A stretch of 64,000 bases of DNA, taken from positions 60,865-124,864 of the IMG/VR virus record IMGVR_UViG_3300030419_007196; one strand, written 5' to 3'. Positions 345 to 60,971 of this stretch are shown in pieces. The translations under genes and the position numbers were made by a program. The notes under the pieces were generated by a model. That model did not search any database, was not told where the DNA came from, and saw only the letters and a program-made list of their open reading frames with translations. Numbering within the stretch: position 1 is the first letter of the stretch; each line of letters opens with the position of its first letter. The DNA comes from a virus.

Positions 345-683
345 TTATTCCCTCTTTCGGCCCTCATAATAAATTATATAGCACTTTTCGCAGGCGCCAT
401 ATTTATGATAAAAGACTTTATCGTTTAAAGATGTAATTTTTACATCACACTTTTGACAAGTCTTAACCTTTCTCCTATTAATTAGTTTTTCGTCCAATAA
501 AAACCCTGCCTCTTGTTCGATCTTATTTGACGTTACCTGTTGAGCGGCGCTCTTTAGTTGTTCTAAATATTTTTTTTCTTTCTCTGGAGTCCAATATTTA
601 GCCGGGTTTTCAATTGCTTCTTCGCCATATTTTTCTGATATGGCTTTCTCTAAGCCTGCGATATAATTTTGGTCTTTTTTCAT
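345..683 (-). CDS. Hypothetical protein with C-terminal Zn-finger-like CxxC...CxxC
   Basis: CQKC and CEKC motifs; ATGA coupling to upstream gene. Confidence 0.75.
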   Translation of the reverse strand: MKKDQNYIAGLEKAISEKYGEEAIENPAKYWTPEKEKKYLEQLKSAAQQVTSNKIEQEAGFLLDEKLINRRKVKTCQKCDVKITSLNDKVFYHKYGACEKCYIIYYEGRKRE

Positions 684-1117
684 TTACTCGCCTGTGCGGC
701 GGCATAAAAGATTCCGATGGACATTCCAACACCGGCTATAAAGCCACCAACAAACCATAACTTAGTATAGTCTGGTTTTTGTGAATTTTTAAGGGCGGTG
801 TGTAATCTTTTAACCTCGCCATCTTTTATTCTCATAAGCTCATTAAACTTTTTCTTGTTTGTGTCGCGATCGATGACAATAAGTCTTTTTTCAAAATTAC
901 ATTCGGCTTTAATCTTTTTAACTGAATAGTCCATATTCAACTCGCAGATTTTAACAGCACTTTCTCTTTTTGCTGCAATAGTCGCCTCTGCCTTCTTGTC
1001 TAACAGGATGCCATCAAAGGGTGCCTTTTGACCCTTTTTTATTGCCGCTATTTTACCATTAGCAAAACAAAAAACTGGCATAAAAGTTATTAGTAAGATA
1101 ATTGCTGTGGTTTTCAT
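680..1117 (-). CDS. Exported/membrane protein (signal peptide, coiled coil, C-terminal TM); possible lysis accessory
   Basis: MKTTAIILLITFMPVFCFA signal-like N-terminus; C-terminal LWFVGGFIAGVGMSIGIFYAAA. Confidence 0.6.
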   Translation of the reverse strand: MKTTAIILLITFMPVFCFANGKIAAIKKGQKAPFDGILLDKKAEATIAAKRESAVKICELNMDYSVKKIKAECNFEKRLIVIDRDTNKKKFNELMRIKDGEVKRLHTALKNSQKPDYTKLWFVGGFIAGVGMSIGIFYAAAQASK

Positions 1118-1521
1118 TCTTCAACCTCAACGATCTCCAAACCAAACTCATCAGCTAAAACGTGCAAGCGCAAGTCTTCAGGCATCTCGATAATTTCTTT
1201 GATGCGCTTCTTTTCTTCCCGTTTAATTTTTTTGCCTTGCGCTTTACGCTCTTCCTCTACCGCAGTAACAACTACACTAAAGTCCTCTTGAGCTTTTTTG
1301 ATCTTCTTAACTTCTTCTTCATGGGCGTTATTTACAATTTTAAGCTCTTCTTTGCCTTGCTTTATCTTATCGTGAAACATCTCTTGATAAAGATATTTTG
1401 CTCTCTTCTTAGCAAATCTAGTAAGAATAAAGCCCACGACTAAAATCACACCAGCCCACCAGTGTGTTTTAGTCCAAATCCAAATTTTGTTTAAAATATG
1501 TTTAGCTGTTAGCCAAGTCAT
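1114..1521 (-). CDS. N-terminally anchored coiled-coil membrane protein (i-spanin-like topology)
   Basis: TM WWAGVILVVGFIL followed by a charged helical region. Confidence 0.55.
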   Translation of the reverse strand: MTWLTAKHILNKIWIWTKTHWWAGVILVVGFILTRFAKKRAKYLYQEMFHDKIKQGKEELKIVNNAHEEEVKKIKKAQEDFSVVVTAVEEERKAQGKKIKREEKKRIKEIIEMPEDLRLHVLADEFGLEIVEVEE

Positions 1522-1715
1522 TATTTTCCTTTGAAGCGAGCTACCACGTCAACGAAACCTTGCGTTCCGACGTATGCTGTAGCGATGATGATCCATTGTT
1601 CTGAATCAACTTTCTCCGCTAAGAGAAGCCCTGTTGTTGTTAGCCATACCAAAAGTTTCTTTGATACAAATCTTTCTAAGTGCCTATCGGCAAATGCTTT
1701 TACTGCTGCCACCAT
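1521..1715 (-). CDS. Small two-TM membrane protein, holin-like
   Basis: 64 aa, two hydrophobic segments, basic C-terminus RFKGK; SD GAGAGGG. Confidence 0.55.
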   Translation of the reverse strand: MVAAVKAFADRHLERFVSKKLLVWLTTTGLLLAEKVDSEQWIIIATAYVGTQGFVDVVARFKGK

Positions 1716-1736
1716 TTTACCCTCTCTGGTTAGTTA

Positions 1737-1799
1737 TTAACCGCAGCAGCAATCGCAGCCGCAGTCCTTTTCACATTTACAATTATCACATCCACACAT
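1737..1799 (-). CDS. 20-aa Cys-rich metallothionein-like micropeptide MCGCDNCKCEKDCGCDCCCG
   Basis: Hand-translated; 9 of 20 residues Cys; SD TAAGGA overlaps the SbcCD stop; ends TAA TAA; fills the intergenic gap. Confidence 0.75.
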   Translation of the reverse strand: MCGCDNCKCEKDCGCDCCCG

Positions 1800-1809
1800 T
1801 TTTTATTCC

Positions 1810-4800
1810 TTATTGATTAACAAATGCATATCCGTCATCTGTTTTAGAGATTTCAATAGTCATATCGACAATATCTTTTAAACTCTCTATGTGAGTAATT
1901 AGTAAAGTAACATCAAAATATCCCTTTACAAGATCCAAGATTCGAACAAAACCTTCCATATTTTCAGCGTCTAAAGCAGTCCCCGGCTCATCAAGAATAA
2001 ACAGGTTGCTCTTGGGCATATTACTTACATTCAACAGCGCAATTCTAATAGCTATAGCAGCTAAAGTTTTCTCTGCCCCAGATCCATTTTCCAAAGGTCG
2101 GGGGTCATGTTTAGGATGCTTAATCTGAATGTCAAGCTTATTATCGTTGTTTTCAAAAAATACTTGAAAGTCCACCACATTAGAAAGAACTTTTGCGATT
2201 TCATCGTTAATCAGCGGCAGCGCCCTTTTAATGACATCGAAAGCAATTCCGTTGCTATGCATACACGTCAGAAATAAATGATGTGCTGAATACTCAGCGC
2301 TCAACCTATCTCGCTCCTTCCTCAAGTGCTCTAAATTTTCTAGTTTTTGTTCTAGAGCGCCATGTGTTCCAATCAAAGAATACAAACACTCGTTGCATTC
2401 ACCAATTTTCTTTTGCCTCTCTTCAACTTCAGCTTTTTTAGACTCTAATTCTGAATAAAGCTTTTCTGTATTCTCTAAAAGCTCTTTGTTTTCTTCATAG
2501 TAACGAATCTTTTCCGTCAACTCTTGTATTAGTGAAGTACTCTTTACTAAGCTACCCGACATTCTCTCATGTTGAAATTTTAAACTCATCAAGAGAGATT
2601 TTTCATCCCTCCCCTTGCTTGAAAGTTTATTATAGTTTTCTATTCTAGATCTAATCTTTCTAACATCAAACCCGCCTAATTCACGATTTTTAAAGCCTAG
2701 TTGGTCTTCTAAAGTTTTTATTAATTCTGTTTGTTTGCTGATTTCTTTTTCAGCCTTCAGAGCGCCGTCCATGTATTTGTGTATTGGACAGTGTTCGCTA
2801 CACGGAACATCGTGTAAGACGCGAGTTTGTTTATTATAGTTATCAAGATCCTTTTCAGCATGACCTTTTTGCTGTGTTAGTTTAGCAATCTCTTTCTCAA
2901 TCTCACCAACTCGGCTAAGTTCACTATCAAGAGTGTCGATGTCGATCATCGCTAAAAGTTTTTCGCTCTTTTTAAGAAAGTTTTCCTTTTCACCAATTTG
3001 TTGTAGAAGGTCCTCTATTTTTTTAATAAGCTTATCTTCATGGGCCTCTTGTTCAAGTAATTGCTGTCTAATATCATTAATGTCGATTCTTTCATCTGGA
3101 AGTTCGGATAAATTTGCCTCCAAGTCAGTTATTTCTTTCTGAAGTGTGCCTAGCTCTTCTTTCAAATCAGCACATTCATTTTTCTTCTTCGCAACATCAG
3201 CGCCGGCTTCAAAAATTTCTTTTTTAACCCTCTTAATGTCCTCATCATAATCTATGTCCTTGACCCGCTTTAGAACACCTCTTAATTCTGATACCTCTTC
3301 TTTTGCTAATTTAAATTTTCTCTCAAAGAATTCAAGATCTAAGAATTTAGCCAAAATTTCTTTGCGCCTAGTTGAACCTTCGTTAATAAAGTTCATAGCG
3401 CCCATTTGCGAGGCCATAGAGGTGGTTAGGAAGTCCTCTAAGCTTCCAAAGACATTCCGTATCGCCTTGTCGGTTCCGCCGCGCTCAGTCTGGTTTAAAG
3501 AGCCTTTCTCGTCAGACACCTGATCTACAAAATCGAAGTCCGCTTGAGTTCTCGCCTCATTCGTAGTCTTACCCTTAAGTTTCTTAACATACTTCTCCGA
3601 TTTCCTAGAAATCGTGTAAGTCTTATTATTTGCCTCAATCTCCACCACGCCAGAGCCTTGGTCCTTATTTTGGTTGATAATGTTGTAAGTCTTTCGAATA
3701 TTTTTAGAAGTATTATTATAGATTGTGTAGAGCAGTGAATCAATGATGCTAGATTTACCACTAAAGTTTTTTCCAAAGATTCCCACAGTTCCAGCAAGTT
3801 TAGTAAAATCGACAGAATTGCCTTCTCCGTAGTTGAATAGATTGTCCCAGCCGAACTTCTTAATTTTCCAATGAACGTTCCTAGAAACGTCTTCACTTTC
3901 TTCGACAACCTTATTATATCTTGAATTAAGAGCGTAGACTTCATCCAAAGTTTCCTCAGATGGATTAAAGTCCATCAAGTACTCCTTAATTAGCTCTTGT
4001 TGAGTCTTTTCGTCTCTCAGATTTTCAAACAATTCTGCGTCAATTTTACCTTCAACAGATAGGTCGTTTGCACCATGTCGACTCAAGAAAGTAATTGATT
4101 CTGGCTTAAACCTATGCTTCGCGATCTTTACTGCTCTTCGAAGTTTTTCTAGTGGAATGTTAGAATTTGAAACAAGTCTCAACCTTGCCCCATGCTGACA
4201 TTCGAATTTGTTGGGAATCCTGCCCGTTTTTGTAAGGTTGATTGTGACAAATGGCTTTGGGTTATTAAAATTTATCTTCCTTCTTTCGAAATCTGTCTTA
4301 CTTTTAATGTCCCAAATGTATATCCCCTTGTCGTTGGTTTCGCCAAAGTTTTGTTGTATTGTTGAGCCTGCATAGGCGATGGTGCCTTCCTTGTTGAGAT
4401 CTTGTGTCTTGTGGATGTCTCCTAAAAAAGCATAATCAAAATCATCAAAAATTGAAATGTCGTGCTCGCCATGTTCCATAACAAAACCGATATCTGTTCT
4501 AGAATATTTAACTGCGCCATGATAAAGGCCAATATTAATCTTTTCTGGCTTTGTTGGCTGAACCCAATTGTCCTCGTCAAAGACAGACAGAACATTAAGA
4601 CAAAAATCTTTATCTAGATGGGTTTCGCCTGCATTTTTTAACAAATAAAGACTTGGATGATCCAAGGCTTCTACAATAGGAGTAATAGCATCTTGGCGAT
4701 AAGAGTTGCGCAGGTTACCATCATGATTACCCAGAATGACGTAAGTTGGAGCAATGTTTGCCAAGTTCTTCAAAAAATCTGAACACAGTTCAACGAACTC

Positions 4801-4962
4801 CGGGGAGATCTGTGTTTTAGTATGTGCGATATCTCCACAATGGATAATACAGTCTACCTTTTCTTCTTTAAGCGTTTTGTAAAGCTGTCCAAAAACTTCC
4901 CGATATTCCTTGTGGAATTTTAGGTTTTTGATGTGGGTGTCTGCGATGTGCGCGAATTTCAT
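1810..4962 (-). CDS. sbcCD: Fused SbcD/Mre11 nuclease - SbcC/Rad50 ATPase (T4 gp47+gp46-like)
   Basis: Phosphoesterase motifs ADTH, GDIAH, GNHD, LGDIH; Walker A GKNFSGKS; long coiled coil; signature GSGAEK; Walker B LFILDEP; H-loop LITH. Confidence 0.93.
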   Translation of the reverse strand: MKFAHIADTHIKNLKFHKEYREVFGQLYKTLKEEKVDCIIHCGDIAHTKTQISPEFVELCSDFLKNLANIAPTYVILGNHDGNLRNSYRQDAITPIVEALDHPSLYLLKNAGETHLDKDFCLNVLSVFDEDNWVQPTKPEKINIGLYHGAVKYSRTDIGFVMEHGEHDISIFDDFDYAFLGDIHKTQDLNKEGTIAYAGSTIQQNFGETNDKGIYIWDIKSKTDFERRKINFNNPKPFVTINLTKTGRIPNKFECQHGARLRLVSNSNIPLEKLRRAVKIAKHRFKPESITFLSRHGANDLSVEGKIDAELFENLRDEKTQQELIKEYLMDFNPSEETLDEVYALNSRYNKVVEESEDVSRNVHWKIKKFGWDNLFNYGEGNSVDFTKLAGTVGIFGKNFSGKSSIIDSLLYTIYNNTSKNIRKTYNIINQNKDQGSGVVEIEANNKTYTISRKSEKYVKKLKGKTTNEARTQADFDFVDQVSDEKGSLNQTERGGTDKAIRNVFGSLEDFLTTSMASQMGAMNFINEGSTRRKEILAKFLDLEFFERKFKLAKEEVSELRGVLKRVKDIDYDEDIKRVKKEIFEAGADVAKKKNECADLKEELGTLQKEITDLEANLSELPDERIDINDIRQQLLEQEAHEDKLIKKIEDLLQQIGEKENFLKKSEKLLAMIDIDTLDSELSRVGEIEKEIAKLTQQKGHAEKDLDNYNKQTRVLHDVPCSEHCPIHKYMDGALKAEKEISKQTELIKTLEDQLGFKNRELGGFDVRKIRSRIENYNKLSSKGRDEKSLLMSLKFQHERMSGSLVKSTSLIQELTEKIRYYEENKELLENTEKLYSELESKKAEVEERQKKIGECNECLYSLIGTHGALEQKLENLEHLRKERDRLSAEYSAHHLFLTCMHSNGIAFDVIKRALPLINDEIAKVLSNVVDFQVFFENNDNKLDIQIKHPKHDPRPLENGSGAEKTLAAIAIRIALLNVSNMPKSNLFILDEPGTALDAENMEGFVRILDLVKGYFDVTLLITHIESLKDIVDMTIEISKTDDGYAFVNQ

Positions 4963-34888: not shown

Positions 34889-35809
34889 TTAAATATAAGC
34901 AGCATTCCTTAATAAGGATCTGCCTTGTCCATTCTTAAATTTTTTTAAATTCATAAAGCAACTATTAATCCCCTCTTGTATGGAGATAGATGCCTTCCAA
35001 CCAATTTGTTCTAATCCTGTTATATCTGCCTTTGTTAGAAGCACATCGCCCTTTCTTGGTGGCCGTGATTCAAACTCAATATTTGGAAAATGTTGCCTAA
35101 TGATCTGTATTACTTCGTTTAATGATATGTTACTGCCCGTGCCGACATCAAACACTTTGCCTCTCAGCAAGTTAGAGTGGTTCATCATGAACACGTTCGC
35201 AGAAACCACGTCATCGACATGCACCATATCCCTTCTATTGTTGCCATCACCATTTAAAAACGGTACCTTATCCTCTCTAATATGATGCATCCAATTGGCT
35301 ATAGCTGTCGCATAACTATCGTTTGCTTTTTGATCCTCTGAATAAACATTAAAGTATCTAAGACTAACTGTGTCTATACCATATATTTTAGACCACAACG
35401 AGCATTCCAACTCTGAATATAATTTTTGTAAAGCATAGGGGCTTACCGGGCCTGAGCCATCGCCAACAACCGATGATGAACTAGAGAAAATAACCCTTTT
35501 TGCGCCTACAGAACGGGCAAAATTCAAAACATTTGTTGTCGCAAGAATGTTGTTCTTGGTGGTCTCAACTGGATTTTCAACGCTGTAGAGAACCCTTGGA
35601 ATACACGCCATATGAAAAATATACTCGGGCTTAAAGTTGTAATACTTTGGATGAAATGATTTTTTATCTAGACCATGATGCAGGTCAGAATTTATATCAT
35701 GACCTTCTAATAGATCGATCCCAATAACTTCATGGCCCAAGTCTCTTAGCCTTTCAAACAGTTTTGTTCCTATGTAGCCTCTATAGCCAGTTACCATACA
35801 TCTAGACAT
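34889..35809 (-). CDS. NAD-dependent NDP-sugar epimerase/dehydratase (GalE/WbpP-like)
   Basis: TGYRGYIG, FSSSSSV, PYALQK (YxxxK), LRYFNVY, RDMVHVDDV. Confidence 0.88.
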   Translation of the reverse strand: MSRCMVTGYRGYIGTKLFERLRDLGHEVIGIDLLEGHDINSDLHHGLDKKSFHPKYYNFKPEYIFHMACIPRVLYSVENPVETTKNNILATTNVLNFARSVGAKRVIFSSSSSVVGDGSGPVSPYALQKLYSELECSLWSKIYGIDTVSLRYFNVYSEDQKANDSYATAIANWMHHIREDKVPFLNGDGNNRRDMVHVDDVVSANVFMMNHSNLLRGKVFDVGTGSNISLNEVIQIIRQHFPNIEFESRPPRKGDVLLTKADITGLEQIGWKASISIQEGINSCFMNLKKFKNGQGRSLLRNAAYI

Positions 35810-60207: not shown

Positions 60208-60971
60208 GGACAATACTCAGTTTTTTTGAATTCGCAATAATTGCACGATAGGCGGTTCTTGATATTTACACCATTTTCAATATTGGTAATAGCATTTTTA
60301 AGTAGCTTCGCAGAATTATCCAACCTTTTTTGGCCATTTGTAACTCTAAAAAGCTCTACAATATTCTTTTTCGCCGTTCTTTTAAGCAGTATAAAATAAG
60401 TTTCAACATTTTTTAAGGGGATATTGTGCTTTTTAGCAAAGAAGTTTTTGTAATAACTTAGTTGATATACCGTCATTTTATCGGATTTTCGCCGTGCGTC
60501 CCACCCCCAAGAGCATGTTTTCCAGTCAATTAGTATGTATTTGTCGCCTTTTTTTAAAATAAGGTCAACTATTCCTTTGAAATTGTATTTTTTTTGCTCA
60601 ATTGGTTGATAAATCATTTCTTCCGCTGAAAAGACTTCCCAATCATGAAAATGTTGCTTCGTGATATCGACTGCCTCGACTGATAACAACAAGCCCTGCT
60701 TGTAAAAGGCGTCCCAGTTTTTATCTCTTTCTAATTGTAATCTATTCGATTCTTCTATAAAACACTCTCTAAAAACGTCTTGTCGTTGTTGCGGCTCTAA
60801 GCCATCAGTAAACCCCTTCTCACAAGCCAAGTGAACGGCTGTGCCAAAAGCAGTATAAATATTTCCTTGGAAGCCCTTTACTTTATCTTCATAAATTAAT
60901 TTTCTTTTATGCGGGCAATCTTTCCAAATTTTTAATTCGGAAAAACTAATGTGTTGTCTCAAGTTGTTCAT
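60204..60971 (-). CDS. PD-(D/E)XK nuclease, Cas4/AddB-like with 4-Cys Fe-S staple
   Basis: ISFS...CP, GTAVH, GIVDL..IDWKT, QLSYY, CNYCEFKKTEYC. Confidence 0.85.
   Translation of the reverse strand: MNNLRQHISFSELKIWKDCPHKRKLIYEDKVKGFQGNIYTAFGTAVHLACEKGFTDGLEPQQRQDVFRECFIEESNRLQLERDKNWDAFYKQGLLLSVEAVDITKQHFHDWEVFSAEEMIYQPIEQKKYNFKGIVDLILKKGDKYILIDWKTCSWGWDARRKSDKMTVYQLSYYKNFFAKKHNIPLKNVETYFILLKRTAKKNIVELFRVTNGQKRLDNSAKLLKNAITNIENGVNIKNRLSCNYCEFKKTEYCP

Follow-up and report, generated by a model that had tools for sequence, protein, structure and literature searches.

We analyzed a 64,000-nucleotide (nt) stretch of viral DNA, referred to here as the window, that covers positions 60,865 to 124,864 of IMG/VR virus record IMGVR_UViG_3300030419_007196. 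The whole record measures 124.9 kb and is estimated to be 44% complete, and the sequencing runs in which the stretch occurs are marine metagenomes contributed by 12 or more studies. The minus strand carries every large gene of the window, among them genes for baseplate wedge proteins and PhoH and an extended block for sugar-modifying enzymes. The subject of this analysis is a nine-cysteine micro-gene at positions 1737 to 1799 of the minus strand, located between a gene for an SbcD-SbcC fusion protein (SbcCD) and a gene for a protein of 64 amino acids (aa). It comprises 20 codons and a TAA stop codon (1739 to 1737) and encodes MCGCDNCKCEKDCGCDCCCG. An earlier note on this DNA, made from the sequence alone, had called the open reading frame (ORF) a small phage metallothionein.

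Direct reading of the sequence and the ORF list place the ATG at 1799 to 1797 on the minus strand. The start codon is preceded by CAA TAA GGA ATA AAA A, and nine of the 20 encoded residues are Cys (45%), arranged as C-x-C-xx-C-x-C-xxx-C-x-C-x-CCC. The first four Cys codons are TGT and the next five are TGC; between them stand, in order, GGA, GAT AAT, AAA, GAA AAG GAC, GGC, and GAT, and a final GGT precedes the stop. A Shine-Dalgarno (SD)-like TAAGGA at 1807 to 1812 (minus strand; AGGA at 1810 to 1807, with a 7-nt spacer to the ATG) overlaps the TAA stop codon of SbcCD (1812 to 1810). A second in-frame TAA (1734 to 1736, minus strand) directly follows the micro-gene stop. The SD sequence of the downstream gene, GAGAGGG (1720 to 1726, minus strand), lies 11 nt past the micro-gene stop, and the 64-aa gene itself starts at 1715, which leaves 21 nt between the two genes. 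The earlier note had described the size of the ORF, the number and spacing of its Cys residues, the mixed use of TGT and TGC, the SD overlapping the SbcCD stop, the double TAA, and the filling of the gap between the two genes, and direct reading bore out every one of these details.

The micro-gene is not a product of chance. In 100 dinucleotide-preserving shuffles of the window, ATG-initiated ORFs of 12 to 40 aa never exceeded 7 Cys, and apart from the micro-gene just one small ORF of the window reaches 30% Cys, a 12-aa frame within a large gene. When the family pattern described below was run on viral contigs with a fixed 9-nt gap, it matched 60 loci, 57 of which were not repeats. The same fixed-gap pattern in reverse matched 5 viral loci, all of them triplet repeats of the (TGT)n/(ACA)n type.

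We then compared the locus with those of related phages, using two samples. The first was anchored on SbcCD and comprised 12 viral loci (49 to 85% identity), 11 of them readable past the SbcCD stop. The micro-ORF was present at the junction in only one of these 11 loci (L002, whose SbcCD is 66% identical), where it encodes MCGCENCNCQELCSCSCCCGTK. The synteny expected downstream of SbcCD was thus found in this one relative and not in the other readable loci. Compared with the window peptide, all nine Cys are kept in L002, two of them through TGT/TGC switches, while seven non-Cys residues differ. The second sample was anchored on the 64-aa gene, so that no Cys was forced, and comprised 44 loci, 41 of them with at least 80 nt upstream. 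An intact nine-Cys ORF, identical or near-identical, lies at the same junction in 11 of the 41 loci, and a twelfth locus carries the tail of the micro-ORF at a contig end. The reading frame and the Cys pattern are therefore kept in relatives, and synonymous variation at Cys codons is found among them. No remnant or decayed copy was seen in the remaining 30 loci. In these micro-gene-free relatives, the ribosome-binding region of the 64-aa gene, CCAGAGAGG, directly follows the end of the preceding gene (the SbcCD stop). Since 30 of 41 loci show no trace of the micro-gene and CCAGAGAGG directly follows the previous gene, the micro-gene is an all-or-none cassette of about 80 bp in this lineage.

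Within the lineage, the downstream neighbor is always the 64-aa gene, whereas the upstream gene is not always SbcCD (L019, L025, and L026 differ); in L026, only 4 nt separate the micro-gene from the 64-aa gene. The sequence (G/A)AGGA occurs at an equal distance from the start codon in 12 of 14 lineage loci, as GAGGA in eleven and AAGGA in L024. In L015 and L020, AAGGA lies farther from the start codon, and no clear SD match is seen in L026. The second TAA is not kept among relatives, which have TAATAA, TAACAA, or TAATTA at this place, and it is probably incidental. As a side observation, the junction downstream of SbcCD in another relative (L010:3001-6857) holds instead an ORF starting MTCGIYKITNLKTGKFYIGSS, which we take from its motif to resemble a GIY-YIG homing endonuclease. 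This suggests that the junction is an insertion hot spot.

Variation within populations follows the same lines. In two DNA runs, variants of the micro-ORF were confined to codons 11 and 12 (K/N and D/N). When two assemblies from RNA libraries were considered together with these runs, variation was seen only at codons 11, 12, 14 (synonymous), and 16 (D to E), and the Cys codons were untouched. A 175-nt contig from metatranscriptomic library X20 (depth, 15.9) covers positions 1632 to 1806 and encodes MCGCDNCKCENNCGCECCCG, with all Cys kept. The second RNA library, X19, yielded two contigs over the micro-ORF, one of which continues into a divergent SbcCD 3' end. Positions 1814 to 2600 were not covered by any contig of the two RNA libraries, an absence that carries no evidential weight.

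To look beyond this lineage, we scanned for the pattern M-C-x-C-xx-C-x-C-x(2,3)-C-x-C-x-CC; members of the family end in CC(C|xC). Among viral contigs, 79 loci matched, of which 74 were ORFs of 19 to 27 codons with 8 or 9 Cys that stopped a few codons after the pattern and 5 were (TGY)n repeats. Among metagenome contigs, about 24 family members were found in at least 116 loci, counting the matches listed, and the rest were repeats. In prokaryote genomes (596 Gb; 185,579 species genomes), 23 loci matched and only 2 were convincing members. When the peptide was used as a tblastn query, none of 50,697 named phage records matched, perhaps owing to the low-complexity filter; the family described here came from the pattern scans. 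The DNA of the 1-kb region likewise had no match among these records. No phage-encoded peptide of this kind was described in the literature searched, where the family appears to be new.

The pooled family comprises 68 distinct DNA sequences and 60 distinct peptides. Most of the peptides are 20 aa long (43 of 60); nine have 19 aa, seven have 22 aa, and one has 27 aa. Nine Cys are present in 59 of the 60, although the pattern forced only eight. The ORFs stop 0 to 8 codons past the pattern, with TAA in 58 cases, TAG in 9, and TGA in 1. The 613 non-Cys residues, whose counts are not independent given the close relatedness of many sequences, are mainly E (105), N (96), K (91), D (71), G (70), T (69), S (54), and Q (29). 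The residues F, I, L, M, V, W, and Y make up 21 of the 613 (3.4%), versus 34% in the long ORFs of the window (binomial P = 7e-79). There is no His, one Arg, and one Pro; F is absent, W occurs three times, and Y occurs twice. As judged from these comparisons, the family is under selection at the peptide level, with the spacing and the number of Cys residues conserved.

Two sets of sequences lie at the margins of the family. A looser pattern applied to viral contigs returned micro-ORFs of 21 to 23 aa with 11 Cys in L091 and L094 (MCKCDCSCCCCCDKCDCKCNG and a variant), and L072 carries a nine-Cys micro-ORF with a different spacing (MCTCEECLCKQCNSCGCCCG). The two prokaryote copies are on small contigs with cellular-looking neighbors, one from a Cytophagales metagenome-assembled genome (L275) and the other from a Marinoscillum metagenome-assembled genome (L280), and they adjoin a PhoD-like phosphatase and a PhoPQ-related protein. 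They may be cellular genes, prophage remnants, or misbinned phage DNA. When 301 genomes from the order to which the Cytophagales genome belongs were scanned with the pattern, only the two known genomes and one hydrophobic chance match came up.

The genomic context of the micro-gene differs among subgroups, which are only 45 to 50% identical to one another. In the window type (ending CCCG), SbcCD or another gene is followed by the micro-gene, the 64-aa gene, and a 135-aa gene. In the type ending CCCWEE, tail fiber and tail fiber assembly genes precede the micro-gene and a thioredoxin gene follows it; the next gene is thioredoxin in L015, L020, and L227 (Pfam PF00085, E = 5e-28). In the 19-aa type, two unassigned genes precede the micro-gene, and the gene after it encodes a protein of 126 to 136 aa with one hydrophobic helix and a coiled coil. 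BLASTP found no similarity between the 136-aa representative of this protein and the 135-aa protein of the window, and a 289-aa neighbor in the same subgroup had no match in cultured phages. Other 20-aa members (L232 and, by gene map, L207 and L251) are the last ORF of their unit and are followed by convergent genes, including that of the major head protein. In L232, an 11-bp bidirectional terminator hairpin stands between the micro-gene and the convergent genes. This terminal position argues for a working peptide and not merely a leader ORF.

The 20-aa CCxC type has the most elaborate surroundings. Varied genes, some of them phrog_3427 holins, are followed by an A-rich leader without an SD sequence, the micro-gene, a hairpin, a terminator-like hairpin with a run of 8 or 9 T residues, and a constant gene of 400 to 540 aa with an N-terminal FAD/NAD(P) motif. 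The first hairpin, which follows the stop of the micro-ORF in L199, L203, L228, L219, and 15 other loci (e.g., L074:1561-1680), has a 5-bp stem and the invariant loop ATTCATAGC. Compensatory double changes occur at three of its stem pairs, in 5, 4, and 7 of 19 sequences. Downstream of it, the 19 distinct sequences have a conserved GAGCTGTGGCC box, the second hairpin with its T run (8 or 9), and the flavoprotein-like gene. A search of 5 loci, one of them the window region, gave no Rfam match at E ≤ 0.1. The array of hairpin, box, and terminator could be an attenuator or another regulatory RNA. The flavoprotein-like gene (25 members of cluster c0) begins with an FAD/NAD(P) Rossmann motif. It matched Pyr_redox_2 at E = 4e-5, which is below the cutoff, and phrog_12409, annotated as "dehydrogenase," at E = 8e-22. 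It had no match in the PDB, only a 40-residue Rossmann match in NCBIfam, and only matches of about 25% identity to Campylobacter phage "dehydrogenase" genes and faecal phages.

Because the scaffold and the number of Cys residues are fixed, the spacers are polar, the ORF has its own ribosome-binding site, and the unit behaves as a cassette independently of its context, we consider that the micro-gene is most likely a functional peptide gene, accessory in nature, of an uncultured marine myovirus-like phage. The reading we favor for its product, held with middling confidence, is a metallothionein-like peptide forming a thiolate cluster, which would represent a virus-borne family without detectable homology to known metallothionein families. 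The peptides have the composition of metallothioneins: they are small and very rich in Cys, they contain C-x-C, C-x-x-C, and CC motifs, they have few aromatic residues, and they lack a hydrophobic core. A profile search of the PDB (177,635 distinct sequences) returned a single chain, the beta domain 2MRT, at a nonsignificant E value of 6.1. In a Pfam scan of 51 members, the only family returned was PF01439, in 13 of the 51 and with a nonsignificant best E value of 0.57. The product thus most likely works like a metallothionein while standing outside every defined metallothionein sequence family. Of the proposal of a small phage metallothionein, the coding micro-gene and the fit of composition and Cys motifs stand, and significant homology to a known family was not found.

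The nearest known systems allow the proposal to be placed. In the vertebrate metallothionein beta domain, nine Cys hold three Zn or Cd ions, and the two domains of vertebrate metallothioneins have nine and eleven Cys. The 2MRT structure (Cd7 metallothionein-2 beta domain, 30 aa) shares the nine Cys with the phage peptide, and a local C-x-C-x-x-C-x-C-x-x-C motif aligns with CKCKQCKCT-SCK. However, the phage peptide is two-thirds as long and has a terminal CC(C) run, and we see no evidence of common descent. The bacterial metallothioneins SmtA/BmtA (PF02069) and the mycobacterial MymT have about 50 to 60 residues, possess His ligands or fold like a zinc finger, and can be recognized with Pfam. 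They are Cys rich and belong to the prokaryotic world, as do the phage peptides, but the latter match no Pfam metallothionein model significantly. The Neurospora crassa metallothionein, which has 7 Cys, resembles the phage peptides in being a single very short, Cys-rich domain with CxC motifs, small polar spacers, no aromatic core, and presumably metal-dependent folding. The phage peptides differ from this Cu-thionein in being shorter (19 to 22 aa), richer in Cys (9, or about 45%), and phage encoded, with no detectable homology and with metal binding that is only predicted. The Neurospora protein has 26 residues and is among those "once considered the shortest MTs" according to one report (PMC4755600). 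A 2026 preprint lists "metallothioneins" among the candidate auxiliary genes of fumarole viruses (PMC13317609).

According to our model, the 20-mer would have no fold of its own, and its nine thiolates would wrap around soft metal ions. Three Zn or Cd ions or, equally possible, Cu(I) clusters might be held in this way, either by a single 20-mer or by paired peptides, and metal or thiol equivalents would be buffered, sequestered, or delivered in the infected cell. Translation in vivo, metal binding, its stoichiometry, the identity of the metal, and the benefit to the phage are all points that we infer. In the lineage of the window, the 3' Cys codons may in addition base-pair with the beginning of the following gene and thereby link translation of that gene to translation of the micro-gene, although this add-on is weakly supported. 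Taken at its widest, and only tentatively, the proposal is that ocean phages, and very rarely bacteria, carry the smallest natural metallothioneins (19 to 22 aa). On their fixed scaffold of nine Cys, these would hold either three Zn or Cd ions in one cluster or a cluster of Cu(I), and phages would gain and lose them as a cassette of about 80 bp with which to manipulate the trace-metal or thiol economy of infected marine cells; in this lineage, the ORF may double as a translational coupler or cysteine sensor for the next gene. Should the peptides bind metal, trace-metal handling would join the known means by which marine phages reprogram their hosts, and the lower size limit for metallothioneins, previously about 26 residues (PMC4755600), would be set anew. 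If the proposal is true, the family would represent a kind of auxiliary gene not known before, one that gene callers do not see owing to its size. The family also shows that strongly selected genes as short as 20 codons are overlooked systematically. A natural 20-residue scaffold with nine thiolates could also be synthesized directly.

The earlier note had further proposed that the peptide supplies Zn to the cotranscribed primase, the Rad50 hook, and Zn-finger proteins. The comparisons do not support this part. Only 1 of 11 SbcCD relatives carries the micro-gene, as do 11 of 41 relatives with the same downstream gene, and the upstream gene in L019, L025, and L026 is not SbcCD. Other family members adjoin tail fiber/thioredoxin, holin, head, or flavoprotein-like genes. 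We therefore regard the SbcD-SbcC fusion as context only, with no apparent functional tie to the micro-gene.

Several points weigh against the metallothionein-like reading. The window peptide matched no Pfam family at E ≤ 0.1 and gave no significant match to the metallothionein models (PF00131, PF01439, PF02069, and others). Eight columns of alignment A2 are invariant (C2, C4, C7, C9, C13, C15, C17, and C18), but the invariance of eight of the nine Cys is partly forced by the search patterns, and many of the family sequences are close relatives. Three checks are independent of the pattern: the sample anchored by synteny, the ninth Cys, which was not forced, and the variants seen within populations. 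The presence of the micro-ORF in RNA libraries is weak support for transcription and proves neither transcription nor translation, because DNA can occur in RNA libraries. The remaining points come from an alternative in which the peptide itself is irrelevant. In this alternative, the micro-gene is a cysteine-sensing leader ORF: ribosomes slow on the Cys codons, especially the CCC run, when charged tRNA-Cys is scarce, and a stem over the start of the 64-aa gene opens. There is a precedent in mycobacteria, where polycysteine short ORFs, one with 9 Cys codons, are cysteine-responsive attenuators whose Cys codons pair near the downstream SD site (10.1101/834739). In the window, the CCC run (codons 17 to 19) lies 11 nt before the SD of the next gene, which is codirectional. 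A predicted stem joins the codons of Cys17 to Cys19 (5' arm UUGCUGCUGC, 1743 to 1752, minus strand) to codons 3 to 6 of the 64-aa gene (3' arm GCAGCAGUAA, 1700 to 1709, minus strand), and its loop encloses the stop codons together with the SD and AUG of the downstream gene. For the CCxC subgroup, the succession of micro-ORF, compensatory hairpin, terminator, and constant gene (19 distinct sequences) fits a variant in which ribosome slowing would shift the choice between hairpin and terminator.

We consider attenuation as the whole explanation unlikely. Folding of the window region gave a minimum free energy of -39.3 kcal/mol (z = -2.62; 2 of 200 shuffles were as good), and for each of the 10 base pairs of the stem, at least 12 of 14 lineage sequences have a standard pair. 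The 3' Cys codons of the lineage are mostly TGC (62 of 80), versus 33% TGC in the long ORFs of the window. However, the stem shows almost no covariation, and the native choice of Cys codons ranks 10 and 12 of 32 synonymous recodings (Cys13 to Cys19) for stem strength and start occlusion, respectively. A sensor needs neither an exact spacing and number of Cys nor the exclusion of hydrophobic residues, and both hold across subgroups that are 45 to 50% identical. Members of the L232 type are terminal, with nothing downstream to regulate, and the downstream genes vary by subgroup; those examined are not cysteine or sulfur genes and mostly lack Cys. The mycobacterial ORFs, Ms5788A and its relatives, resemble the window ORF in being unannotated and short, with about nine Cys codons, some consecutive, just upstream of a gene with whose initiation region they can pair. 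They are leaderless, with long uninterrupted Cys runs, and stand ahead of cysteine or sulfur metabolism genes (10.1101/834739). The window ORF, in contrast, has its own SD, and members of the phage family start after an SD or an A-rich leader, interleave their CxC motifs with polar spacers on a fixed scaffold, have varied non-sulfur neighbors, and in some cases are terminal copies. Cysteine-sensing attenuation is possible as a secondary role in this lineage.

The peptide could instead be redox active or bind a cofactor, as a substrate or partner of an oxidoreductase, an Fe-S ligand, or the core of a modified peptide natural product. We judge this rather improbable. Thioredoxin is the next gene in L015, L020, and L227, and the constant gene downstream of the CCxC type begins with an FAD/NAD(P) Rossmann motif. 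Against this, the window copy has no thioredoxin- or flavoprotein-like neighbor, and a terminator stands between the micro-ORF and the flavoprotein-like gene. Neither among the window genes nor beside any other subgroup did we find a radical-SAM, YcaO, lanthipeptide, or other maturase, and the 20-residue product lacks the leader region typical of modified-peptide precursors. The Cys motifs are CxC and CC and not of the ferredoxin type (CxxCxxC...CP).

It is still less probable that the micro-gene product serves the downstream 64-aa protein as a dedicated small subunit. The micro-gene does, within this lineage, always directly precede the 64-aa gene whatever lies upstream, and the spacing is tight (21 nt in the window and 4 nt in L026). 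However, the 64-aa gene stands without the micro-gene in 30 of 41 relatives, and the other subgroups have unrelated neighbors. The 64-aa gene (1521 to 1715, minus strand) encodes a predicted three-helix protein without Cys. Its AlphaFold model has helices at residues 2 to 13, 19 to 31, and 38 to 61 and a mean predicted local distance difference test score of 76. The protein had no match in Pfam, PHROG, or NCBIfam, and a fold search of the model against viral structures gave no match at E ≤ 0.001. Its 85 database homologs (35 to 112 aa) are all unnamed or "hypothetical," and none has more than 4 Cys or the Cys-rich N terminus that a fused subunit would leave. The N-terminal extensions of the longer homologs (e.g., ...ATAPVAVC... 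and LRLLLLLR) are over-extended gene calls, being the DNA of the micro-ORF read in the frame of the neighbor, as shown for L265, L215, and the window. Gene callers thus hide the micro-gene inside an over-extended neighbor. Gene calls with V/A/L-rich extensions are P0026 to P0028, P0032, P0035, P0049, P0050, and P0066 to P0068. In four loci fetched with P0049, neither the extension nor the micro-ORF was present.

That the micro-ORF is no gene at all but a chance ORF or a GC-rich noncoding element of the intergenic gap might be argued from its very small size, its being overlooked by gene callers, and its lack of a database homolog, but this is effectively refuted by the comparative data, in that the shuffle and reversed-pattern controls point the other way, the frame, start codon, place of the stop, and nine Cys are shared by 60 distinct variants that differ in their other residues, and the Cys codons show synonymous TGT/TGC switches.

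Three small genes follow the micro-gene at positions 680 to 1715 (minus strand), encoding the 64-aa protein, a 135-aa protein, and a 145-aa protein; they contain 0, 0, and 3 Cys, respectively, and have no family match. The 135-aa protein has a hydrophobic N-terminal stretch and a charged, coiled-coil-like tail, and the 145-aa protein begins with a signal or lipobox-like segment and has a hydrophobic helix at its C-terminal end. The trio is, in our view, reminiscent of a lysis cassette of the holin/spanin type. On the other side of the micro-gene, the SbcD (Mre11-like)-SbcC (Rad50-like) fusion (1810 to 4962, minus strand; 1,050 aa) matched phrog_100 and phrog_77 and the Metallophos and SMC_N families. 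It is conserved over its full length in at least 9 viral loci, and among named relatives the best is that of Microcystis phage Mel-JY01 (30% identity). The window contains no tRNA genes and thus no phage tRNA-Cys. Farther along, at 34889 to 60213 (minus strand), lies a block of about 25 kb with nucleotide-sugar epimerases, glycosyltransferases, an aminotransferase, methyltransferases, and a UDP-glucose dehydrogenase-like gene. This glycan biosynthesis block is unusually large for a phage record.

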